From contig JAUSOY010000061.1 of the NCBI GenBank assembly GCA_030656615.1, forward strand, positions 25,319-89,318: a stretch of 64,000 nt of DNA, written 5' to 3'. This DNA comes from Bacteroidales bacterium. GTDB lineage: Bacteria; Bacteroidota; Bacteroidia; Bacteroidales; TTA-H9. Position numbers and translations under genes: made by a program. Shown here piece after piece: positions 3,281 through 60,201 of this stretch. A model generated the notes under the pieces. The model saw only the letters and a list, made by a program, of their open reading frames with translations. It did not search any database and had not been told where the DNA came from. The stretch's first letter is position 1. Each line of letters begins with the position of its first letter.

Positions 3281-4159
3281 ATGACTACTACATACTCGAT
3301 AAAAGATCTTGAAAAATTCTCCGGAATAAAAGCCCATACCATAAGGATTTGGGAGAAGCGTTTTCAGATCTTCACTCCTGATCGCACCGAAACAAACATC
3401 AGGCGGTATTCGGAAGAAGAGCTAAAGTATCTTTTAAATGTCTCTGTTCTGTATAACAAGGGCATGAAGATTTCGGAAATCATGAATCTTCCTCCCGATT
3501 TAATGCGTGAACGGGTCATGCAATTAGCTATACAATCGGATGGAATTGAAAGTCATCTGGAGAATCTCGTCATTGCAATGATCGAATTAAACGAGGATCT
3601 TTTTGATAAGACGTTTAATACTTCCATGATTAAGTTGGGTTTCGAAAAAACAATAATTCAACTAATCTATCCGTTTTTTGAAAAAATCGGGCTATTATGG
3701 CAAACCGGAAGCATAATTCCCACCCAGGAACACTTCATTTCCAACCTGATTCGTCAGAAACTAATCGTAGCCATCGATTCTATAACTGCTCCACGTTCAG
3801 CCACAGCTAAAAGCTTCCTGTTATATCTGCCAGAGAACGAATGGCATGAACTTGGACTATTATTCAAACATTATCTGATTAAAAAGCGAGGACACCGAGT
3901 TATTTATCTGGGCCCTAATGTGCCCTTCGGAAATCTAAAAACCGTAATTCAAAGTGTCAAACCATGTTGTATCGTCGGGCAATATATCACCTCACGTTCG
4001 TTTGAAGAATCAAAAACTGATTTACAAAATCTTGCTGAATACGCATCTTCGATTCAGATTTTCATTTCCGGGAACTTTTTACAGAAAAATCCGGATTTGC
4101 TCCCCAAGGGTTTATTGGCCTACAAAAACATCTACGAATTCCTAGAACAGACTGAGTAA
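3281..4159 (+). CDS. MerR-family transcriptional regulator with B12-binding domain (CarH/LitR-type candidate photoreceptor)
   Basis: N-terminal MerR HTH (IKDLEKFSGIKAHTIRIWEKR). Wx9EH motif at W140-E150-H151 (LLWQTGSIIPTQEH). ExHxxG motif at E187-H189-G192 (ENEWHELG), followed by a Rossmann-like segment. Confidence 0.8.
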   Translation: MTTTYSIKDLEKFSGIKAHTIRIWEKRFQIFTPDRTETNIRRYSEEELKYLLNVSVLYNKGMKISEIMNLPPDLMRERVMQLAIQSDGIESHLENLVIAMIELNEDLFDKTFNTSMIKLGFEKTIIQLIYPFFEKIGLLWQTGSIIPTQEHFISNLIRQKLIVAIDSITAPRSATAKSFLLYLPENEWHELGLLFKHYLIKKRGHRVIYLGPNVPFGNLKTVIQSVKPCCIVGQYITSRSFEESKTDLQNLAEYASSIQIFISGNFLQKNPDLLPKGLLAYKNIYEFLEQTE

Positions 4160-5484: not shown

Positions 5485-5643
5485 TGCTTCTTTGTTTTAG
5501 TTTACAATATCTCTGCTAAAAAGCAACCAATTACTTGCACAATTAAAGGTTTTTAAAGTAATTTCGTGTTTCAAAAAAATGCTTATTATTTTAAACAGCA
5601 ATAAACACCTATCAAACCAATTATAACCATAATCCCGAGAACC

Positions 5644-8025
5644 ATGAGAAAAATTAGCCAATTCTTGTTTTTTATAATTATCCTGCTTTCGTTTGCCAAT
5701 CAGGCCAATGCTCAGGCTAGGGTTCAATTTATACATAATTCTCCAGACCTGCTCCTCGACTCCATTGATATCTATATCAATAAAACAAAGGTTCTTAATG
5801 ATTTCAAATTCAGAACAGCTTCAGGATTCATGGATGCGTTTACTGGTGTGAATTTAGTAATCGATATCTGTGATCCTACAACCACCACGCCATCCAATGC
5901 CCTGGCTACATTCACTACCCAGTTTGTTGCGAACAATAAATACATCATCGTTACTTCCGGTGAACTATCTCCGCTTGGTTATAATCCTTATCGCCCTTTT
6001 TCGCTACAATCATATAATCTGGCCCGGGAAAATGCGATTACTTCAACCAATACTGACCTGATGTATTTTCATGGATCGCCTGATTCGCCCACTGTTGATT
6101 TATGGCTAAACGGAACAGGGATATTATCCGAAGACTTGGCTTTCAATAGTTTTGATGAGTATTCTGAAATCCCAACCGCTGACTATGTTCTTGAATTAAA
6201 AGATTCGACCAGCCTGACTATAATAAACAGTTATGATTTAAAATTAGCCGAATGGGGCATGAACGGTTTATCCGGAATCCTTCTTACTTCGGGTTTTGTA
6301 AATCCTTCTTCCAATAATTTCGGTTCTCCATTTGGAATATTTATTGCTCCCAGTACTGGAGGTGCCTTTGTAGAAGTTCCCCCGGTTCACGTACCTACTG
6401 CATATCTTCAGGTAATTCATAACTCAGCCGACTTAAGCCTTAGCGTTGTTGATATCTGGGTAAACGATAAAATTGTTGCTAACGACCTTACTTTTCGCAA
6501 TGCGATTTCATTTATTGAACTTGATGGCGATGCAAGTGCCACTGTTGCCATATTACCATCGAATTCTACCAGCCCAGCCAATCCATTGGCATCATTAACA
6601 GCAACTTTTGCTGATGGCGTAAGTTATGTACTCACCACCGCCGGAATCAAAAGCAGTTCAGGTTATAATCCTATGAAGCCTTTTGAAATAAAAAAATTCG
6701 ATAATGCCCGTCAACAAGCCTCCATCACAAATAATACAGATATTCTGTTCTTCCATGGCACAACGGATTTAGAGTCAGTTAATATTACTGAAACTGGCGC
6801 TGGAATTGGTAGTATTGCTACGAATTTATCCTATTCGAATTATCAGGGTTATAAAAACCTGTTGACTGCTGACTATATTTTTACCGTTAAAAATATAGCA
6901 GGAGACGTTAGTTATGGTGATTATATCGCACCACTTTCCCAGTTGGGAATGGCTGGAAAAGCCATCACAATTGTTTGCTCAGGATTTTTAAACCCGGAGA
7001 CTAATAGTAATGGCGAAAAATTTGGTTTATACGTTGCACGTGCTACAGGCGGCAGTTTAATACCACTACTGCCATACACACCTCCAACAACCTCCGATAT
7101 ACAATTTATCCATAATTCTGCTGATACCGCTTTATCCGTTGTAGATGTATGGGTTGATGATCAATTGATTATTGATAATCTGGAGTTCGGCAAAGCTTCT
7201 CCTTTTCATGAAGTTTTAAGTGGTAGCGCGGTTAAGGTATCGATTGCTACCAGCAACAGTACCAGTTCTTTAAATCCAATCATTAGTCAGGAAGTAAATA
7301 TACAGCCTGGCAAAAAAAACATGCTAGTTATCCATGGCATACAATCGGCTACCGGGTACGAACCTAAGAAAGAATTGGCCCTTGAACTAAAAACCAACAT
7401 TCGTACACTTGCCCTCAACCCCTTGAATACCGATGTAAACATTTTCCATGGTTGCACCGATGCTCCAGAAATTGATGTTTATGAATTTACCAGCGGCGCT
7501 TTATTACAAGATATAGGATTTGGAAGCTTTTCCGATTACGCAGAGCGCGTTACGGCCAATGGAGGAATCCACATTTATGATCCACAAGCACAAATCATCG
7601 AATCATATACAACTCCCCTTCTTACAATGGGATTTGCAGGAAAAGCTCTAACGATGATTACTTCGGGATTTATAAATCCGATTGTTAATAGTAATGGTCC
7701 TGCTTTTGGAGTTTATATCATTCCTTTGAATGGTGGAAATCTGATACCTCTTCAAAAAGTAACAGGGATTGAAAATCCTAATTCACTAGTAGCCAGTATT
7801 TACCCGAATCCAGCAAGTCAGTTTTTGTATATCAAATCAGCGTTGAATGAAAAAACCAAAGTTGATATTCAGTTAATGACCATCGACGGAAGTATTGTTC
7901 GTAAAACACAAAGTCAAGGCAGTGAAATTATACAGATCGCTATAGACCAGCTTCCTTCAGGAATTTATCTTCTTAAACTTATCAGTGAAGGCCGAGTTTC
8001 TACAAATAAAGTAGTTATTCAGTAA
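5644..8025 (+). CDS. secreted DUF4397-repeat protein with T9SS C-terminal sorting domain
   Basis: Signal peptide (LLSFANQANAQA). Three ~230-aa internal repeats each open with (V/I)QFIHNS(P/A)D and contain FFHG/IFHG and TSGF(V/L/I)NP. The C-terminus (IYPNPASQFLYIKS...GIYLLKL...KVVIQ) is T9SS CTD-like. Confidence 0.8.
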   Translation: MRKISQFLFFIIILLSFANQANAQARVQFIHNSPDLLLDSIDIYINKTKVLNDFKFRTASGFMDAFTGVNLVIDICDPTTTTPSNALATFTTQFVANNKYIIVTSGELSPLGYNPYRPFSLQSYNLARENAITSTNTDLMYFHGSPDSPTVDLWLNGTGILSEDLAFNSFDEYSEIPTADYVLELKDSTSLTIINSYDLKLAEWGMNGLSGILLTSGFVNPSSNNFGSPFGIFIAPSTGGAFVEVPPVHVPTAYLQVIHNSADLSLSVVDIWVNDKIVANDLTFRNAISFIELDGDASATVAILPSNSTSPANPLASLTATFADGVSYVLTTAGIKSSSGYNPMKPFEIKKFDNARQQASITNNTDILFFHGTTDLESVNITETGAGIGSIATNLSYSNYQGYKNLLTADYIFTVKNIAGDVSYGDYIAPLSQLGMAGKAITIVCSGFLNPETNSNGEKFGLYVARATGGSLIPLLPYTPPTTSDIQFIHNSADTALSVVDVWVDDQLIIDNLEFGKASPFHEVLSGSAVKVSIATSNSTSSLNPIISQEVNIQPGKKNMLVIHGIQSATGYEPKKELALELKTNIRTLALNPLNTDVNIFHGCTDAPEIDVYEFTSGALLQDIGFGSFSDYAERVTANGGIHIYDPQAQIIESYTTPLLTMGFAGKALTMITSGFINPIVNSNGPAFGVYIIPLNGGNLIPLQKVTGIENPNSLVASIYPNPASQFLYIKSALNEKTKVDIQLMTIDGSIVRKTQSQGSEIIQIAIDQLPSGIYLLKLISEGRVSTNKVVIQ

Positions 8026-10150: not shown

Positions 10151-10974
10151 AAATCTTCAAGATCTTTTTGAAATTCGATAGCTTGTTCTCTGGATGGTAC
10201 CTTCCCATGCCAGCGATAATCATTTTCAATCGATGGAATTCCCTTCCCCATGATGGTTCGGGCAATTATTACAACCGGACCTACCACATTGCTTATGGCT
10301 TTATCAAAGGCAGTTTCTAAATCTGCGAAATTATTACCGTCACATTCCAACACTTTCCAACCAAAGGATTCCCATTTCTGTTTCAGAGGTTCTATCTCCA
10401 TCACATCCGATGTTTTTCCATCAATTTGAAGACCATTACGGTCAACAATAGCAATCAGCCTATTCAGTTTGTGGTGACTTGCCGACATGGCCGCTTCCCA
10501 AACTGAACCTTCCTGTAATTCTCCATCACCCATAACGACAAAAACACAGGTATCATTATTATTTATGCGTTTAGAGATAGCTAGTCCAACGCCTACCGAT
10601 AATCCCTGGCCCAATGAGCCGGAAGATAATTCAATTCCGGGTAAGCCGTGATCTTTGCCCGGATGACCTTGCAAACGAGATCCAAGTTTACGGAGTGTCA
10701 ATAATTCATCCAGATGGAAATAGCCGGCATGTGCCAATGTGGAATAAAACACAGGCGCCACATGACCTATTGACAATATCAAATGGTCACGCCCTTCCCA
10801 ATCCGGCTGATTCGGGCGGTGCTTCATGACCTTAAAATACAAATAGGTAAAAACATCACTCAGGCCGAGTGAACCACCCGTATGCCCTGAGCCGGCCTCT
10901 GCCAGAGAACGGATAATCCATTGACGAATGGAACGGCTCATGTTTTGCAATTCTTTCAGATTCTGGTCATCCAT
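10147..10974 (-). CDS. transketolase, N-terminal (TPP-binding) subunit
   Basis: 275 aa with a TPP-binding motif region (GHTGGSLGLSD...GDGELQEGSVWEA). Confidence 0.9.
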   Translation of the reverse strand: MDDQNLKELQNMSRSIRQWIIRSLAEAGSGHTGGSLGLSDVFTYLYFKVMKHRPNQPDWEGRDHLILSIGHVAPVFYSTLAHAGYFHLDELLTLRKLGSRLQGHPGKDHGLPGIELSSGSLGQGLSVGVGLAISKRINNNDTCVFVVMGDGELQEGSVWEAAMSASHHKLNRLIAIVDRNGLQIDGKTSDVMEIEPLKQKWESFGWKVLECDGNNFADLETAFDKAISNVVGPVVIIARTIMGKGIPSIENDYRWHGKVPSREQAIEFQKDLEDL

Positions 10975-11000
10975 AGGTGAATTTATATTTCAGGATGAAT

Positions 11001-12971
11001 TTATTTCGAAGGTAATGATTTTTCTGTGGTCCGACTGGTTTTTCGATGCTGAATCATCCATTGAGAAGCCTGTAAAACGGAAAACGCCTGACGTTTTAAA
11101 AATTCATATTGTGCCGCACGACTTGAAATTTTATTTTTAAAGCTTGAATCATCCAACAAAAACAATTGAGAATCAGAATATTCAGGAATTACAATTAAAA
11201 GAGAATCCGATAGTATTCCAAGCTTATCATCCTCATTTAATATTACAAAATTCCGTCTTTCTCGGGTTAGATCCATACCCGGGCTACGATTGGTATAATT
11301 TAAGTCGAGATAGCCACATATTGACGGAAAAACATCGATCTGTGAAGCCAATGCCGTGTCCATTCTTGAAGTAAAACTTGAATCCGGTGAAAAAATAAGA
11401 AAAGGACTATGATGAAAACCCAACGAAAATCCATATGGATTTGAAACCTGTGTTCCATGATCAGCCAAAAACACAAAGAGCGTATTGTAATACCAGGGCT
11501 GAAGCTTTGCATGATTCATAAAATCGCGAAGCGCCCAATCAGCGTACTCTACAATCTGTTTCTGAGATGATTTCGATTTTGGATAAAAAGGAATTCCTTC
11601 GGGGATCGTATAGGGTACATGATCAGATGCTGTAAGAAAAACCGCCAGAAATGGTGATTTATCTTGAGAAACTTCGTTCAAATATTTGAATGAATGCCTG
11701 AACATCGAATGGTCAGGAACTCCGAGGGCACTGACAATTTCAGAAGATGGGTAATCCTTTTGGGAAATAATACGGTCAAAACCATTTGCCCTGAAAAACC
11801 CACCTACATTGTCGAATTGATCGTCGTGTGTTCCGAAATACAAATTTGTATAACCTTTTTGCTTCAAAATTGAAGGCAAACCATCATAGGATAAAATGGG
11901 TGCCGGATTCATCGGATGTTGTCTTTTTAGCGCCGGGTATCCAAAAAGCGTTGCGTACAATCCATTAAAAGTGTGAATACCCGCAGAATACATTCGCGAA
12001 TATGAAATGGATTTTCCTGCCAAACTATCCAAAAAAGGAGTAAGTATCTGTCCATCTTTAACAAGACCTGTCTTATGCATGGCCATACTTTCCATGATAA
12101 CGATAACAACATTTGTTTTTTTCTCCCCGGTCCTGCTCATGAAGCTCCGTTCAAACGGAAGCAAAGAATCAAGCGAATGATTATACAAATTCTTACATAA
12201 AAGGATTGCTTCATTTTCGTCAACCAAATTAAGAGCCCGATATTTATCATCTACATCGTCCAACAGACTTTGGATAAACGTAAATATGGGGTTTAATCCC
12301 AATTGATTAAGAAAGGCATCGTTACAAAAATAAGCCGTACCAATACGAATTGGTGATTTTTTTTCTATTCGGCCACGGACTGCCAGCAGAATAACTCCAA
12401 GAAATAAAATTGAAATGACAATACTGCCAGGTATCCATTTTCGGTTTTTAGTGAAATTTATACGGTACATAGCCATACGCAGGTAAACAAACCTATGGTA
12501 AAACACAAAGCCACAAACCACACTAATCCAAAGAACAAAATAGGGCAAGTATGATATTTCCTGAGCCACCATACCCAGCATAATTTCAGGTGAATCGATC
12601 CACTGCAATGAAGCTGAGTTTAATCGACTACCATAATGCTGGTAATAAGGAATATCCACAGCTGACAGAAAAAATACAAGGCTATAAATGACGTTTACAA
12701 ACCAAAACACCACACACTTGACGGCCTTTTGCAAAAACGGGATATAATAAACAACAATTAACAATAAAGCAGGAATGGCCAGTAAATAACCAGAGATAAC
12801 CGTATCAAAACGGAATCCCATCCAAAAAGACATTAACACAAGATTAAAAGGCGATTCATCAACAATGCTAATAAAAAGCACTAGCCTGAAAAGGGTAAAT
12901 AAAACCAATCCACCCAGATATACCAGTAAAATATACTTCAGATGGTGAAGACTATTTATAAACTCCTTCAT
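11001..12971 (-). CDS. LTA synthase / sulfatase-family membrane phosphotransferase
   Basis: 656 aa with an N-terminal polytopic membrane segment and an alkaline-phosphatase-superfamily sulfatase domain (VVIVIMESM...TASDHVPY...FLADHG). Confidence 0.8.
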   Translation of the reverse strand: MKEFINSLHHLKYILLVYLGGLVLFTLFRLVLFISIVDESPFNLVLMSFWMGFRFDTVISGYLLAIPALLLIVVYYIPFLQKAVKCVVFWFVNVIYSLVFFLSAVDIPYYQHYGSRLNSASLQWIDSPEIMLGMVAQEISYLPYFVLWISVVCGFVFYHRFVYLRMAMYRINFTKNRKWIPGSIVISILFLGVILLAVRGRIEKKSPIRIGTAYFCNDAFLNQLGLNPIFTFIQSLLDDVDDKYRALNLVDENEAILLCKNLYNHSLDSLLPFERSFMSRTGEKKTNVVIVIMESMAMHKTGLVKDGQILTPFLDSLAGKSISYSRMYSAGIHTFNGLYATLFGYPALKRQHPMNPAPILSYDGLPSILKQKGYTNLYFGTHDDQFDNVGGFFRANGFDRIISQKDYPSSEIVSALGVPDHSMFRHSFKYLNEVSQDKSPFLAVFLTASDHVPYTIPEGIPFYPKSKSSQKQIVEYADWALRDFMNHAKLQPWYYNTLFVFLADHGTQVSNPYGFSLGFHHSPFLIFSPDSSFTSRMDTALASQIDVFPSICGYLDLNYTNRSPGMDLTRERRNFVILNEDDKLGILSDSLLIVIPEYSDSQLFLLDDSSFKNKISSRAAQYEFLKRQAFSVLQASQWMIQHRKTSRTTEKSLPSK

Positions 12972-55886: not shown

Positions 55887-57839
55887 ATGAGAGTCATCCT
55901 GATATTTCTTCTTTTAATAATATCGTTGCATGCCTATCCGCAACGCCAAGCCTTATCCACGCAATCGTCAAGAGCGGAAAAACATTATACACGGGGTGCC
56001 GGTCACTTGCATATACGAGAATTTGAAAAAGCTGAAAAAGAACTGATAAAAGCCACTGAATCGGACATTCACTTCACCGAAGCATGGATGCTTTTGGGCG
56101 ATTTATACATCGACACCAGAAGATTCGAAGATGCTGCAATCGCATACACAAAATCACTCCACACGGGCCGCAAAACATATCCTGAAGCATTTTTCTTTGC
56201 CGGCTCGGTCGAACTAAAAATAGGCTGGTATGATAGTGCCTATGTTCATCTTGAACGATTTCTTTCTTTCACACAAACGTCGGAAATTCGCAAAAGCATG
56301 GCCAGGCTGCGATTGGCATCTGCTGCTTTCTCGCGCATTGCTATAAAAAATCCCGTTCCTTTCCGGCCAAAAAATCTTGGACCCAACGTCAACTCCTCCT
56401 TCTCAGAATATTTTCCCTGCCTTACGGTGGACGACAAAACGCTATTATTTACCCGGCGGGTCAGCGATAAGGATCACCCCGGACGTGAACAAGAGGATTT
56501 TTACATTTCCAACTGGTCCGATACAACTTGGTCAGAGGCCAAAGCACTGGATTATCCCATTAATACATACATGAATGAAGGAGCGCCTACGCTTTCATCG
56601 GATGGACAACGACTTTTTTTTACCGCTTGTGCGGGTTATAGTGGCTATGGAGAGTCAAGAATCGGTTTCGGCAGTTGTGACCTTTTTATGTCAGTAAAAC
56701 ATGGAAACACCTGGCAAGAACCCGTCAATCTGGGAAATCCTATCAATACATCGATGTGGGAAACTCAGCCAGGATTTTCTTCGGATGGCCGAACGCTCTT
56801 TTTTATTCGAGGTTACACAGATCGTATGAGTGTTTATCACCAGGACATTTACTTCAGTGTTCTTGACACCAATTGGCGATGGAGCCGTCCTGAAAAAATG
56901 CCTGATAACATCAACACCCCTGGCATCGAAGAAAGTGTATTTATTCATCCCGATAGCAAAACGCTTTATTTTTCTTCCGATGGTCATCCGGGAATGGGCG
57001 GACTCGATATTTTTATTACCCGTAAACAAAGCGATGGCAGTTGGTCGGAGCCTGAAAACATCGGATATCCCATTAATACCTTTGCCGATGAAAACAGTCT
57101 GATGGTTTCTGGTGATGGAAAACTGGGATACTTTGCTTCCGATAGAGAGGGTGGGTATGGAAAGTTGGATCTTTATAGTTTCGAAATGCCCGAGCGTATT
57201 CGTCCGAATAAAATCACCTATCTTAAAGGAATCGTATACGATGAGAAAACCCATGAACCCCTGGCAGGTACGTTTGAACTAACTGATTTAGCAACCGCAG
57301 AAGTAAATATCTCTTCGCAGGCAGATGCAACAAGTGGGGAGTTTCTCGTGGCTTTACCCACCGGCAAATCATATGCGCTCAATGTATCTTCTCCGGGTTA
57401 TCTGTTTTATTCTGACCATTTTAATTTAGAAGGCGATTTTGATCGTTTAAACCCATACATTAAAGATGTGCCCCTTCAACCCATTATTGTTGGCGAAACC
57501 GTTATACTCAGAAATGTGTTTTTCGATACAGATTCCTACCTGCTCTTATCAGAATCAAAAATCGAACTCGACCGATTATCGGGTCTTCTGAAAAAAAATC
57601 AGGGAATAACCATCGAAATCAGCGGTCATACCGATAACCAGGGCGATGATGCCTATAATTTGGAGTTAAGCCTGCAAAGAGCAAAGTCTGTTATGGAATA
57701 CCTAATTAATCAAGGCATAAAACCAATCCGGATGACTTATAAGGGATATGGAGAAACACTCCCGGTGCAAACCAACGACACCGAAAATGGACGGGCCAGA
57801 AACCGACGTACAGAATTCAAAATCATTGAAGTAAAATAA
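55887..57839 (+). CDS. OmpA-family protein with TPR and TolB-like beta-propeller repeats
   Basis: Signal peptide MRVILIFLLLIISLHA and N-terminal TPR. Repeated E..P.LS.DG..L.F (WD40-like/TolB) units. C-terminal OmpA peptidoglycan-binding domain (FDTDSY...ISGHTDNQGDDAYNLELSLQRA...NRRTEF). Confidence 0.85.
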   Translation: MRVILIFLLLIISLHAYPQRQALSTQSSRAEKHYTRGAGHLHIREFEKAEKELIKATESDIHFTEAWMLLGDLYIDTRRFEDAAIAYTKSLHTGRKTYPEAFFFAGSVELKIGWYDSAYVHLERFLSFTQTSEIRKSMARLRLASAAFSRIAIKNPVPFRPKNLGPNVNSSFSEYFPCLTVDDKTLLFTRRVSDKDHPGREQEDFYISNWSDTTWSEAKALDYPINTYMNEGAPTLSSDGQRLFFTACAGYSGYGESRIGFGSCDLFMSVKHGNTWQEPVNLGNPINTSMWETQPGFSSDGRTLFFIRGYTDRMSVYHQDIYFSVLDTNWRWSRPEKMPDNINTPGIEESVFIHPDSKTLYFSSDGHPGMGGLDIFITRKQSDGSWSEPENIGYPINTFADENSLMVSGDGKLGYFASDREGGYGKLDLYSFEMPERIRPNKITYLKGIVYDEKTHEPLAGTFELTDLATAEVNISSQADATSGEFLVALPTGKSYALNVSSPGYLFYSDHFNLEGDFDRLNPYIKDVPLQPIIVGETVILRNVFFDTDSYLLLSESKIELDRLSGLLKKNQGITIEISGHTDNQGDDAYNLELSLQRAKSVMEYLINQGIKPIRMTYKGYGETLPVQTNDTENGRARNRRTEFKIIEVK

Positions 57840-57861
57840 CCAAATGCGAACCACAGAACTT

Positions 57862-57872
57862 CCCGTTTCGGG
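57862..57872 (+). terminator. weak hairpin after OmpA-family gene
   Basis: cccg-ttt-cggg followed by TTTC, 23 nt after the stop codon. Confidence 0.3.
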
Positions 57873-58095
57873 TTTCGGCACTTCACTGCGCCCTTCGGCA
57901 GGCTCAGGGTGACATTCCGTGTGACAGTACAGACATTTCGCTTCATTCAGTGAGACACATCGTTGAAAGTCAAAAGTTGAAGGCCTGCCCTGAGTGCCAC
58001 CCTAGCGCAGTCAAAGGGCGGAACGCAGTGGTGTCGAAGGGGAACTCGAAACATTCAGCGTTTTTATCTCTTAGTTTTTAACTTTTAGTTTTTTT

Positions 58096-58180
58096 ATCTG
58101 TGGATTTGCATTTTCTCCCTCTCGCCCTTTCTCCTCTTCTCCCATTCACTTTTTCGTAATTCGTAATTGCTAATTTGTAA
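58096..58180 (+). repeat. 85-nt direct repeat, copy A
   Basis: atctgtggatttgcattttctccctctcgccctttctcctcttctcccattcactttttcgtaattcgtaattgctaatttgtaa. By eye it is about 90-95% identical to copy B. Confidence 0.9.
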
Positions 58181-58182
58181 AT
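58155..58182 (+). repeat. heptanucleotide tandem array (4 units)
   Basis: cgtaatt cgtaatt gctaatt tgtaaat. Confidence 0.8.
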
Positions 58183-58233
58183 AATAGATTGGCCGTTCAA
58201 TTTAAATATTGACCTCTGATTCAGCCCCCATCC

Positions 58234-58274
58234 CCGGCCCTTCCCCCAATTGGTGGAAGGGTGACTATGCCGGC
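58234..58274. other. GC-rich nested hairpin in variable block 1
   Basis: Outer stem ccggc (58234-58238) pairs with gccgg (58269-58273). Inner stem ccttcc (58239-58244) pairs with ggaagg (58255-58260). Confidence 0.6.
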
Positions 58275-58285
58275 GGAAATAATTT

Positions 58286-58320
58286 GATAATTCGTAATTT
58301 CTCTAATTACTGATTACTTA
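58286..58320 (+). repeat. heptanucleotide tandem array (5 units)
   Basis: gataatt cgtaatt tctctaa ttactga ttactta. Confidence 0.8.
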
Positions 58321-58357
58321 TCTGTGTCCATCTGTGTTTTCATCTGTGCCATCTGTG
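58320..58357 (+). repeat. four ATCTGTG motifs at 9-12 nt spacing
   Basis: Occurrences start at 58320, 58330, 58342 and 58351. A single copy lies at 58096 in copy A. Confidence 0.8.
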
Positions 58358-58435
58358 GATCTGCATTTTTCTCCCTCTCGCCCTCTCTCCTCTTCTCCCA
58401 TTCACTTTTCGTAATTCGTAATTGATAATTCGTAA
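58351..58435 (+). repeat. 85-nt direct repeat, copy B
   Basis: atctgtggatctgcatttttctccctctcgccctctctcctcttctcccattcacttttcgtaattcgtaattgataattcgtaa. Confidence 0.9.
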
Positions 58436-58472
58436 TTTCACTAATCACTGATTACTAATAACTAATAAAGTT
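58410..58472 (+). repeat. heptanucleotide tandem array (9 phase-locked units)
   Basis: cgtaatt cgtaatt gataatt cgtaatt tcactaa tcactga ttactaa taactaa taaagtt. Units start at 58410 and every 7 nt after that. Confidence 0.85.
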
Positions 58473-58656
58473 GGCTGTTCATTCGTTTTCAGTGGCTGAG
58501 CCTTCGAGTGCAGTTCGACAAACTCACTGCTTGCCTCAGACCTCGGTTCTCCAACGATGGATGAGGCTCTCGAAGCCAACAGAGAGGAATTTGACTTGCT
58601 CACTGGCCTGGGCTTTAGCTGCCCTTACAGGGCGTTATTCGATTTCTATTTTAATA

Positions 58657-58675
58657 CCCCGGGATTCTCCCGGGG
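58657..58675. other. GC-rich hairpin in variable block 2
   Basis: ccccggg-attct-cccgggg (7-bp stem). Neighbouring small hairpins are gccct-tac-agggc (58621-58633) and gggc-tttca-gccc (58688-58700). Confidence 0.65.
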
Positions 58676-58784
58676 CTATATTTAACTGGGCTTTCAGCCC
58701 GAACCACCACCGGTATTTTCCTGATTTATTTTAAATTGGTCAATTTTTATCAAGCAACTAACAGAATAATGGACATCTCAATTG

Positions 58785-58862
58785 CTCATTTTCTCCCATT
58801 CTCCCACTCTCCCTCTCTCCTCTTCTCCCTCGTAATTCGTAATTGCTAATTCGTAATTTCAC
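58785..58862 (+). repeat. diverged third copy of the repeat
   Basis: Shares ccctctctcctcttctccc and cgtaattcgtaattgctaattcgtaatttcac with copies A and B. The CT-rich part is rearranged. Confidence 0.75.
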
Positions 58863-58865
58863 AAA
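58831..58865 (+). repeat. heptanucleotide tandem array (5 units)
   Basis: cgtaatt cgtaatt gctaatt cgtaatt tcacaaa. Confidence 0.8.
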
Positions 58866-58879
58866 ATTGGCTGTTCATC

Positions 58880-58895
58880 CCCGAAAGCTTTCGGG
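58880..58895. other. perfect 16-nt palindrome in variable block 3
   Basis: cccgaaagctttcggg. Confidence 0.7.
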
Positions 58896-58915
58896 ATTCA
58901 CTGGTCAATATTCGT

Positions 58916-59036
58916 TGCTGCATTTTCTCATCTTCTCCCACTCTCCCTCTCTCAACTTCTCTCTCTCTCACCCTCGCCCTTTCTCCTTTTCTCCCTTTCT
59001 CACATTCCCATCACTTCTTCACTTCTTCACTCCATC
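58916..59036 (+). repeat. ~120-nt polypyrimidine (CT-rich) tract
   Basis: gcattttctcatcttctcccactctccctctctcaacttctctctctctcaccctcgccctttctccttttctccctttctcac..., ending in cacttcttcacttcttcac. Purines on the plus strand are sparse. Confidence 0.85.
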
Positions 59037-59058
59037 ACGCATTTCCTTAAAAACCTCC

Positions 59059-59511
59059 CTAAATAACATCCACTATCTTCGTCTTTAACCCGTTAAACGA
59101 ATATTCGTCCCCTTTCTTAAGTCCGCTGATGTGCTTAAATAACGGAACCTGTGAGGATATTACAAAACAATCCGTTTCCATCACTCTGACTTTTCCAAGG
59201 CCGATACCAACCAATAAAATTGCAGAATCAGTAACCACCAGCGAGCCCGGGCCAATAGTGGAGCCAGACTTTTCAAAGTCGATTTTCCCCATAACTTCAA
59301 TATTATTCAGAGCTCTCTGGTATTGTTGAGCAAACATATCGCGCTTAAGCATGTTCTGAGCCCGGAAAGAATCATATCTATCCTTAGGGGCACCGTAATC
59401 ATTCGCTGCCTGCTGGTGCTCATTCATGGCCGTTTTTGCTGCATCAGCCTGCGAATGAATCAGTTCGTAACATGCCTGCAGTAATTGTTTCTTTAGTTCT
59501 GAATAGTTCAT
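59059..59511 (-). CDS. hypothetical protein, possibly GreA/GreB C-terminal-domain-like
   Basis: 150 aa from MNYSELKK. The helical N-terminal half and the C-terminal segment (IGPGSLVV...ISSQVPLFKHISGLKKGDEYSF) resemble the GreA FKBP-like domain. This is a weak call. Confidence 0.45.
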   Translation of the reverse strand: MNYSELKKQLLQACYELIHSQADAAKTAMNEHQQAANDYGAPKDRYDSFRAQNMLKRDMFAQQYQRALNNIEVMGKIDFEKSGSTIGPGSLVVTDSAILLVGIGLGKVRVMETDCFVISSQVPLFKHISGLKKGDEYSFNGLKTKIVDVI

Positions 59512-59569
59512 AATCGAAAGTGTCTGATAAAAGTACAGATTTCTATCGAAAAATGCCGGCGCGAGTTTG

Positions 59570-59577
59570 TACCTTTG
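59570..59577 (+). promoter_or_regulatory. -7 box TACCTTTG upstream of UPF0316 gene
   Basis: Matches TAnnTTTG, 28 nt before the ATG at 59605. Confidence 0.5.
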
Positions 59578-59604
59578 CCGCCGAAACAACATTTATTATA
59601 TTAC

Positions 59605-60201
59605 ATGAGCGATTTATTAAATACTCAATCCGAACTATTTGCCCTCGTCATTATTCCATTATTAATCTTTATTAGCCGCATCATCGATCAGAGCATCGGG
59701 ACACTAAGGCTGATTTTTGTGGCGAAAGGTTTTAAACTACTGGCACCTCTTCTGGGATTTTTTGAAGTAATAATCTGGGTTATTGCCATTGGACAAATCA
59801 TGCAGCACCTTGATAATGTTTTTTGTTATCTGGCTTATGGTGGTGGCTTTGCTGCAGGAAATTATATTGGAATTTATCTCGAAGAAAAACTATCGCTGGG
59901 AACCGTTCTTATACGCGTAATGCCAAAAAAAGACACGACCGAACTCGTCAGCAACCTTAAGGAAGCCAACTTTGGTGTAACCATGATGGATGCAGAGGGA
60001 AGTACAGGAAAAATAAAGATTTTACTCTCCATCATCAAGCGTAAAGAACTCAAACAATATGTGCCAATAATCAATAAGTTCAACCCAAATGCGTTTTATA
60101 CTGTTGAAGAGATTAAATCGGTTCATAGTGGGATTTTTCGTACCAATGGGAAATCAAAGGGTATTTCAGGAATTCTCGCAGGAATCACCAAGAAAAAATA
60201 A
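59605..60201 (+). CDS. UPF0316/DUF2179-family membrane protein
   Basis: Three N-terminal TM helices (IIDQSIGTLRLIFVAKG...) and a C-terminal DUF2179-like domain (TMMDAEGSTG...FYTVEEI). Start set at MSDLLN. Confidence 0.75.
   Translation: MSDLLNTQSELFALVIIPLLIFISRIIDQSIGTLRLIFVAKGFKLLAPLLGFFEVIIWVIAIGQIMQHLDNVFCYLAYGGGFAAGNYIGIYLEEKLSLGTVLIRVMPKKDTTELVSNLKEANFGVTMMDAEGSTGKIKILLSIIKRKELKQYVPIINKFNPNAFYTVEEIKSVHSGIFRTNGKSKGISGILAGITKKK

Follow-up and report, generated by a model that had tools for sequence, protein, structure and literature searches.

Why do two convergent genes of a Bacteroidales bacterium end some 1.2 kb apart, and what is the DNA that lies between them? The gap in question belongs to a 64,000-nt stretch of contig JAUSOY010000061.1 (assembly GCA_030656615.1; hereafter "the window"). 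On its left, an OmpA-family open reading frame (ORF) on the plus strand ends at 57839; on its right, an ORF on the minus strand ends at 59059. The interval between them, 57840-59058, measures 1219 bp. On our crude gene map of the window there are eight gaps between convergent genes, and the other seven measure -14 to 167 bp. No credible gene lies in 57840-59058: its ORFs have no Pfam support, a tRNA search of the gap found none, and the Rfam covariance models returned nothing at threshold (cmscan, 57000-60000 at E up to 1 and 58480-58800 at E up to 10). A preliminary description of this DNA had reported a gene-free convergent gap that is not a known RNA gene, and both statements hold, as do the exact ends of the two ORFs. 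The gap is the sole long one of its kind in the window.

Our answer is that the gap is a lineage-specific repeat island, largely non-adaptive, which would have been built by slippage, local duplication and rearrangement. We put the probability of this reading at roughly 0.6. It starts from the anatomy of the repeats and from a comparison with the closest relative of the right gene.

A ~100-nt composite unit in four direct copies

The region departs from the rest of the window in its repeats and in its base composition. Tandem Repeats Finder (TRF) places 12 of the 30 short tandem arrays of the window in 58060-59038, with periods of 7, 8, 10-12 and 14; the 7-8-nt units are present in 2-9 copies. 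Different repeat words stand side by side (TTCGTAA, ACTAATA, TTCTCCCN, ATCTGTG-N, GTTTTTA and TCACTTCT). Doublets of TCGTAAT with up to two mismatches occur nine times in the window, where 0.72 are expected, and all nine are in 58154-58857. The only all-pyrimidine runs of at least 24 nt in the window are 58807-58831 and 58977-59001, and the four most pyrimidine-rich 100-nt segments of the 64 kb are all in the region (pyrimidine fraction 0.75-0.89; mean 0.50, sd 0.06). The region is non-random, modular and strand-asymmetric, as had been claimed. The composition scan likewise agrees that all polypyrimidine tracts lie on one strand, the plus strand, but the tracts that had been called CT-only are actually 87-95% pyrimidine.

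What repeats is a composite unit of ~100 nt with a fixed order of parts: TTGCAyTTTT, a C/T-rich tract of 8-nt period (TTCTCCCN), about four TCGTAAT-type heptads, TTTCAC..AAA and ATTGGCYGTTCA. Four copies, A to D (Table 1), all have the same orientation, and their starts are spaced by 255, 423 and 132 nt. Over ~100 nt, A, B and C can be aligned in register. The left parts of A and B are 95-98% identical (98% for repeat family D1 and 95% for D4), while C and D are more diverged. The 12-mer TTGGCYGTTCAW is found as an exact match at 58189, 58471 and 58867 and nowhere else in the window, in agreement with the positions given earlier. Given this alignment and the common orientation, the three 12-mers are paralogous copies and did not arise independently. 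In unit D, TCACTTCT 8-mers replace the heptads and the 12-mer is missing; TRF reports it as three rows (58933-59001, 59011-59031 and 59008-59038), and it is 87% pyrimidine. Unit A taken together with the heptad segment 58284-58321 corresponds to a B-type unit that is split by ~115 nt (58169-58283), and these ~115 nt carry the 12-mer and GC-rich block 1.

The preliminary description had seen a four-part module recurring three times, with a variable GC-rich block as its last part. The three modules do align in register; however, the real unit is the ~100-nt composite, which is present four times and does not include the GC-rich block. The blocks themselves are mutually unrelated, and two of them are conserved elsewhere. 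The further tract placed at 58916-59036 exists (58913-59036) but is the diverged fourth copy of the unit and not a separate CT tract. A blastn comparison (word size 9) of the region with the rest of the window found that no part of it recurs, which bears out the statement that its words are absent from elsewhere in the 64 kb.

Lineage restriction and a break in synteny

The closest relative of the right gene encodes a 68% identical protein (P0002) and is found on two short-read contigs, L120 and L121. On L121 this gene has a 3' gap of 237 bp and converges on an HhH-GPD gene instead of the OmpA-family gene. This gap also holds heptads (GTGAATA/GTGAGTA and AGCCAAT/AACCAAT/AGTCAAT). L120 and L121 represent two strains with identical P0002, and one of their heptad arrays is longer in one strain than in the other by exactly one 7-nt unit. 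Two parts of the region have counterparts on L121. The 76 nt at 58225-58300, which comprise the hairpin and G-quadruplex (G4) block and the adjoining AATTCGTA heptad, are 87% identical to L121 4072-4147 (E = 4e-17), and the G4 motif is kept there at ~4125-4147. The GTTTTTAACT array at 58072-58093 is identical in 22 of 22 positions to the end of L121 (4921-4942), where it lies beyond HhH-GPD. In the genome studied here, HhH-GPD adjoins rplT (on L001), and the convergent partner of the right gene is the OmpA-family gene. Synteny breaks exactly at the 3' end of the right gene. Where homologues of this gene are only ~45-48% identical, the 3' gap measures -4 to 138 bp and the neighbors differ; the repeat region is restricted to this lineage, the distant relatives being judged by gap length.

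The history that we favor would run as follows. Two convergent transcription units meet at this site, which would offer no promoter or coding sequence to disrupt. There, (i) replication slippage would have made the 7-8-nt (and 10-14-nt) arrays and would keep resizing them; (ii) local duplication or unequal recombination would have copied the ~100-nt unit (C/T tract, TCGTAAT heptads and ATTGGCYGTTCA) to four direct copies, the A/B duplication being the most recent; and (iii) a rearrangement would have taken out HhH-GPD and fused two repeat-bearing gaps. The simplest order of events would place this rearrangement before the later duplications and expansions. We propose the loss of HhH-GPD and the gap fusion because on L121 HhH-GPD has the hairpin block on one side and the GTTTTTAACT array on the other. 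Slippage is proposed because of the 7-8-nt periods, the one-heptad difference between L120 and L121, and the survey of Mrazek et al. as cited in PMC4679880. The GC-rich blocks that stand among the arrays would be either older conserved elements or small insertions, in both cases outside the repeating unit. We infer slippage and recombination as the mechanisms, and likewise the absence of a dedicated function.

GC-rich blocks, flanking genes and the words elsewhere

Table 1. Positions of the features in and around the gap, in window coordinates
Position	Strand	Feature	Basis
55887-57839	+	OmpA-family gene, left flank: TPR/PD40/OmpA-family protein, 650 aa from ATG start	ORF list; match to contig L002
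57874-58038		Block 0: ~45-nt GC-rich element present as an imperfect inverted pair (57874-57917 with 57992-58038); resembles a REPIN or MITE	
58060-58093	+	Array GTTTTTAACTCTTA, period 14 or 7, 2.4 copies	TRF
58096-58200	+	Unit A: ATCTGTG word, TTGCATTTT, C/T-rich 8-mer tract 58111-58153, TCGTAAT-type heptads 58153-58180, 12-mer TTGGCCGTTCAA 58189-58200	
58201-58283	-	Block 1: GC-rich, hairpin CCCTTCCCCCAATTGGTGGAAGGG (58238-58261) overlapping G4 motif GGGGGAAGGGCCGGGGATGGGGG (58225-58247, -)	Palindrome, folds, G4 scan
58284-58321	+	Heptad segment TTGATAATTCGTAATTTCTCTAATTACTGATTACTTAT, 92% identical to 58422-58459 inside unit B	Repeat-family comparison, direct reading
58320-58357	+	ATCTGTG-type (ATCTGTG-N) array, period 10-12, 3.7 copies	TRF
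58351-58482	+	Unit B: part order as A, extra TAATCAC/TGATTAC/TAATAAC heptads ahead of 12-mer TTGGCTGTTCAT (58471-58482)	
58483-58781	-	Block 2: ~300 nt, ~50% GC, several short GGGC/GCCC hairpins; 58521-58764 conserved, non-coding	Strand from better fold
58782-58878	+	Unit C: TTGCTCATTTT, C/T tract 58789-58831, TCGTAAT heptads 58830-58858, 12-mer TTGGCTGTTCAT 58867-58878	
58879-58896		Near-perfect palindrome CCCCGAAAGCTTTCGGGA	Direct reading
58913-59038	+	Unit D, diverged: start TTGCTGCATTTTCTC like C; C/T-rich 8-mer tract grown to 8.6 copies of TTCTCCCT	TRF, family D1
59059-59511	-	Right flanking gene: conserved protein, probably 150 aa, no Pfam domain	Homologue lengths, Pfam scan

Three GC-rich blocks are interspersed with the arrays (Table 1). 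Around block 0, the segment 57835-58060 folds into a single long hairpin (-73.9 kcal/mol, z = -1.9). Its two arms align with a score of 22, compared with 14.7 +/- 2.4 (maximum 30) for shuffles; support for the inverted pair is moderate. It could also serve as the terminator hairpin of the OmpA-family gene, and it has no copy elsewhere in the window or in the loci that we fetched. The preliminary description had seen no terminal inverted repeats and had set aside a miniature inverted-repeat transposable element (MITE). No inverted repeat is terminal at the units or at blocks 1 and 2, which are also free of target-site duplications and have no extra copies in the window or the fetched loci, and for them we reject the MITE as well; the first 220 nt of the gap nevertheless hold the imperfect inverted pair. 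The G4 motif of block 1 is the sole canonical one in the 64-kb window, both strands having been scanned. Contigs L002 and L120, from two different samples, both end inside or at the hairpin of this block.

Block 2 stands out by its fold and by its homology. On the minus strand it folds at -94.5 kcal/mol (z = -3.0 to -3.3), and on the plus strand z is -1.7 to -2.1. Across 46 background windows the mean z was -0.43 (sd 0.98, minimum -2.89), so that the minus strand of block 2 lies below all of them. An exhaustive HMMER search with an 87-aa ORF of the block gave one meaningful match, P0200 (MDO9511559.1), a partial "hypothetical protein" on a 2660-nt contig of another Bacteroidales metagenome-assembled genome (MAG); the other three matches were unrelated repetitive proteins. 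In a tblastn alignment P0200 matches 58521-58601 in one frame and 58615-58764 in another, through stop codons. Because this alignment changes frame and crosses stops, the ~245 nt at 58521-58764 are homologous at the nucleotide level, as a non-coding element, and MDO9511559.1 is probably a spurious translation of that element. The 87-aa ORF, which also matches no Pfam family, was rejected as a gene for the same alignment. Within the block, 58657-58701 (+) scores 30.1 bits against the Acido-Lenti-1 RNA (RF01687), below the gathering score of 37, and this match is merely two of the short hairpins of block 2.

Other roles were considered for parts of the unit and dropped. The C/T tracts have no mirror repeats, which removes H-DNA or a triplex. 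The 12-mer as a promoter (Bacteroidota -7 box, TAnnTTTG) is unsupported: it fits well only in the metagenome contig L127 (below), and the three copies here agree at 4-5 of 6 positions. Minus-strand mini-ORFs after the GA tract (MQIHR, MQIHRWHR and MSN, each followed by a stop, and a 25-aa ORF) are not conserved between units.

Of the two flanking genes, the left one is reproduced on Logan contig L002, which encodes exactly the OmpA-family product with Pfam PD40 and OmpA. The right gene was drawn as a 177-aa ORF (59059-59592, -). Nearly all of its 79 homologues measure 145-151 aa and cover ~80-85% of the ORF, and we therefore think that it probably begins at an internal ATG, which gives 150 aa. 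No Pfam domain reaches its cut-off in this protein. In the family, which is found in Bacteroidales MAGs, a few sources use the label GreA/GreB-like or prefoldin-like.

Is the repeat found elsewhere? The complete ~100-nt unit was found at this locus only, and a translation of module A had no match as a protein query. The words have a far wider range: TCGTAAT arrays occur in cyanobacteria, other Bacteroidota, Acidobacteriota and viral contigs. A blastn search of the region against phages gave no match and against plasmids a single heptad match, to a Planktothrix agardhii plasmid in which one gap holds (ATCAGTT)n, a C/T-rich stretch, (TCGTAAT)4 and (CCCTATT)3. Our scan of genome contigs for TCGTAATT-N5-35-TTGGCYGTTCA was too lax, nearly all of its 117 rows being chance matches in coding DNA; the real mosaics were L110, L022 and L024/L116 only. 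Among the matches of this lax scan, TCGTAAT heptads adjoin TTGGCTGTTCA in Saprospiraceae, Chitinophaga and Blastocatellaceae MAGs. The mosaic on L110 (1398-1831; Saprospiraceae MAG contig JALHRR010000003.1) is itself a convergent gap, made of tandem words of GATTGA type, GGCTGTT type, (TCGTAAT)3 and AAATCTGA type, and its palindrome cccaaaagctttgggg resembles window 58879-58896. A strict pattern of heptads plus 12-mer returned nothing from IMG/VR and three contigs from JGI metagenomes, two of them by chance and one a real mosaic (L127, JGI24705J35276_12238693). At ~10900-11100 of that contig, more than 150 nt of TCGTAAT, TCCTAAT, TTGTAAA and TCCTGAT lie between tandem genes and end in TAtcTTTGGCCGTTCA, a perfect Bacteroidota-type -7 box (TAnnTTTG) 30 nt ahead of an ATG.

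In IMG/VR, (TCGTAAT)3 or longer is present in 65 viral contig stretches (L131-L195; for example L160 4791-4856, L152 ~1780-1850 and L140 ~3480-3540) with 79 arrays, where the chance estimate is ~0.03. These contigs range from 24 to 67% GC; 46 of the 79 arrays are in short tandem-gene gaps and 9 are inside ORFs. Two control heptads of the same composition yielded 14 and 17 stretches, TAACTGA 107. Arrays of heptads therefore form a general class in which some words are favored. Within the first 40 viral contexts, several arrays either form an inverted pair, (ATTACGA)n-loop-(TCGTAAT)n with a T-run behind it, an arrangement that resembles a terminator, or lie just upstream of a ribosome-binding site and ATG. 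On two related contigs, L141 (~7220-7370) and L150 (~5600-5750), arrays of more than 20 GTGTTCA/GTGTTTC units abut (TCGTAAT)3 near the contig end. A C/T tract joined to heptads is not a general architecture, C/T flanks being present upstream of 6 and downstream of 1 of 76 viral TCGTAAT arrays.

Translations of the words had been expected to appear as junk proteins in Bacteroidota and cyanobacteria. For the ITNYELR word this was confirmed: a synthetic ITNYELR-repeat query matched 453 proteins at E up to 10, and those that are named come mostly from Nostocales, with Pseudanabaena, a Tannerella MAG and Vibrio in addition. A literature search on the peptide words found nothing relevant.

Alternative explanations and known systems

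Several of these findings weigh against a largely non-adaptive origin. The hairpin/G4 block is 87% identical in the relative though the adjacent protein is only 68% identical, which is more conservation than neutral DNA should have, and block 2 combines a homologue in another MAG with an unusually good minus-strand fold. These two blocks at least may be functional. The pyrimidine-rich arrays, all on one strand and with the strongest C-over-G stretch of the window, would also suit Rho loading. TCGTAAT is ~4x commoner in viral contigs than the two scrambled controls, and the choice of words is not purely random. Finally, the short-read contigs both break inside the region, and this could mean that further copies exist beyond the 64-kb window.

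There are at least four other ways to explain the region or parts of it, and those that concern termination, mobility, RNA and assembly are not mutually exclusive. The GC-rich blocks could be small non-autonomous mobile elements that entered the arrays, similar to MITEs, to REPINs (doublets of repetitive extragenic palindromic, or REP, sequences) or to small dispersed repeats (SDR), and the ~100-nt unit would perhaps be mobile too. Units A and B do differ by a clean insertion of ~115 nt with the 12-mer and hairpin block, the inverted pair at 57874-58038 is like a REP doublet, and the Saprospiraceae mosaic has a similar AAGCTT-centred palindrome; the homologue of block 2 lies on a short contig that ends in the block, and short-read contigs of two samples end inside the hairpin block. 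However, a second copy of any of these elements is absent from the remaining 62.8 kb of the window and from ~2.7 Mb of fetched loci, the orthologous site apart, the hairpin pattern has 0 matches in viral contigs, and we saw neither target-site duplications nor clear terminal inverted repeats. Moreover, the breaks in the contigs could come from the G-rich quadruplex motif instead of multiple copies. On balance we regard mobility as unlikely. We are more skeptical of a role in termination or insulation. Rho utilization (rut) sites are C-rich, G-poor, weakly structured stretches of ~70-80 nt on the transcribed strand and are linked to Rho loading. The plus-strand C-rich tracts could act as repeated rut sites and stop OmpA-family read-through from running antisense into the 150-aa gene, and the hairpin/G4 block could end or stabilize the minus-strand transcript of that gene. 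By composition only, the tracts are well suited to this: they are all on the plus strand, the top C-over-G 80-nt segment of the 64 kb is 58935-59014 in unit D (C minus G fraction 0.50), and three more of the top four are in the region. The hairpin/G4 block, with the only G4 motif in the window, has also been conserved in the relative, where it follows the same gene on the sense strand. But the stop codon and that block are 136 nt apart in the relative and ~810 nt apart here, intrinsic terminators are not in excess (1 found, 1.7 expected), and the seven other convergent gaps suffice with at most 167 bp and no such tracts. Heptad arrays elsewhere, furthermore, lie in either orientation to transcription (~29 and 17 in viral tandem-gene gaps), and those of L022 and L124 are opposite to each other.

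Block 2 (58483-58781) might alternatively be a structured minus-strand non-coding RNA, either an independent small RNA or a 3' untranslated domain of the 150-aa gene, and this too we hold to be rather improbable. Its minus-strand fold lies below all 46 background windows, the weaker plus strand fits G-U pairing, and the ~245 nt shared with another Bacteroidales MAG are conserved through a frame shift and stop codons, so that it is not a protein that is conserved. On the other hand, one background window reaches z = -2.89, the one homologue is available as a translated fragment only, and no Rfam family reaches threshold; no Bacteroidota-type promoter is evident by eye, and the single sigma-70-like match is at chance level. 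A combined scheme is more doubtful still: block 2 would be a new Bacteroidales RNA on the minus strand, the hairpin/G4 block a 3'-end element, and the TCGTAAT and C/T arrays the binding sites of a factor shared across phyla and phages. The shared factor is considered because (TCGTAAT)n occurs in contigs of 24-67% GC, at ~4x the frequency of scrambled heptads, and often as inverted pairs or just upstream of starts. To an assembly artefact, a collapsed or chimeric repeat, we give hardly any credence. The sole other assembly of this genome is identical to the window wherever they overlap, and short-read contigs of SRR13727525 are 100% identical to 57840-58247 and 58832-59058; these contigs end inside the region and break on either side of 58248-58831, a middle part with no independent confirmation. 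All of unit A, part of C and all of D are nevertheless reproduced in that separate short-read assembly, homologous heptads and the hairpin block also follow the same gene in the closest relative, and block 2 has its homologue in another MAG.

If the region is a largely non-adaptive repeat island, as we favor, then the locus illustrates how an intergenic gap can grow, from 237 bp in the closest relative to 1.2 kb, via slippage, local duplication and rearrangement. Such islands break short-read assemblies; this happened at our locus and in the relative, and probably also in another MAG, whose homologous block reaches the contig end. They also seed junk "hypothetical proteins" in databases and mark synteny breakpoints. 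The words and the phenomenon have been described before; the composite unit in four copies and the two GC-rich blocks that are conserved are local features that deserve to be recorded. A few heptamers (TAACTGA, TCGTAAT) recur in Cyanobacteria, Bacteroidota, further phyla and viral contigs, and the present locus is one more case of this recurrence without explaining it.

How does the region compare with known systems? It is not a CRISPR array, as had been concluded earlier, since its units are ~100 nt long, internally repetitive and unevenly spaced (255/423/132 nt). The short tandemly repeated repetitive (STRR) heptamers of heterocystous cyanobacteria, which Mazel et al. reportedly described in 1990, resemble it as period-7 tandem arrays in non-coding DNA, and the Nostocales, Tolypothrix PCC 7601 among them, have many ITNYELR-type translations of (TCGTAAT)n. 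The host here is a Bacteroidales, in contrast, and the likeness is one of array period and translated words. The SDR elements of Nostoc, said to have been described by Elhai et al. in 2008, are reportedly hairpin elements of 21-27 nt inserted in heptamer arrays; the palindromes at 58879-58896 and 58238-58261 likewise stand between arrays, a likeness of position. With the Acido-Lenti-1 RNA (RF01687), 58657-58701 shares two short GC-rich hairpins and a GGCUA-containing linker, but the match is below threshold, comes from a phylum other than those that gave the RNA its name and lies inside a larger conserved block. REP sequences, bacterial interspersed mosaic elements (BIMEs) and REPINs (Bertels and Rainey 2011, PMC3116915) share with this region GC-rich imperfect palindromes at gene 3' ends, an inverted doublet (57874-58038) and a mosaic of extragenic DNA; here, however, there is no second copy in 62.8 kb, and the region consists mostly of direct tandem repeats and not of palindromes. 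REPINs would be the nearest model for the inverted GC-rich pair (PMC3116915).

The closest resemblance is to heptamer repeats. TAACTGA and other heptamer direct repeats are intergenic in Beggiatoaceae, 15 Cyanobacteria and 5 Bacteroidetes (MacGregor 2015, PMC4679880), and long mixed heptamer assemblages occur in Gramella, Aequorivita and Elizabethkingia (PMC4679880). For these mosaics, close relatives have shorter repeat-free gaps, contigs end partway through repeats, gene neighborhoods are changed, and a role in rearrangement has been suggested, Bacteroidetes included (PMC4679880). Among long simple sequence repeats (LSSR), the survey of Mrazek et al. (2007), as cited in PMC4679880, found heptanucleotide units to be the commonest category in most genomes and proposed polymerase slippage. 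Our region holds head-to-tail arrays of 5-11-nt units beyond chance, in intergenic DNA and with mixed units, whose words occur in Cyanobacteria and in other Bacteroidota. As far as PMC4679880 relates the LSSR survey, the two also agree in unit lengths of 5-11 nt, heptanucleotides as the commonest unit, a patchy phylogeny and a proposed slippage origin; LSSR, by contrast, is a statistical class of single arrays, whereas here a higher-order unit is duplicated and GC-rich elements are interleaved. With the mosaics of MacGregor the region shares intergenic tandem 7-nt units, several heptamers side by side, stop codons in all frames of one strand, words (ACTGATT/ACTAATA) that differ from a TAACTGA permutation at one position, and a synteny break; two strains of the closest relative, in addition, differ in an array by one heptad. 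It differs in that the dominant heptad is TCGTAAT and not TAACTGA, that its arrays are short (4 copies) and lie inside a duplicated ~100-nt unit with an 8-nt C/T-rich tract, and that it is located between converging gene ends and not just upstream of start codons. The preliminary description had suggested a widespread but uncharacterized family that fits no described repeat. The words are indeed widespread; the module is not, and the class was already described (PMC4679880). The locus is a local, lineage-specific example of the described heptamer-repeat intergenic mosaics and not a new kind of system.

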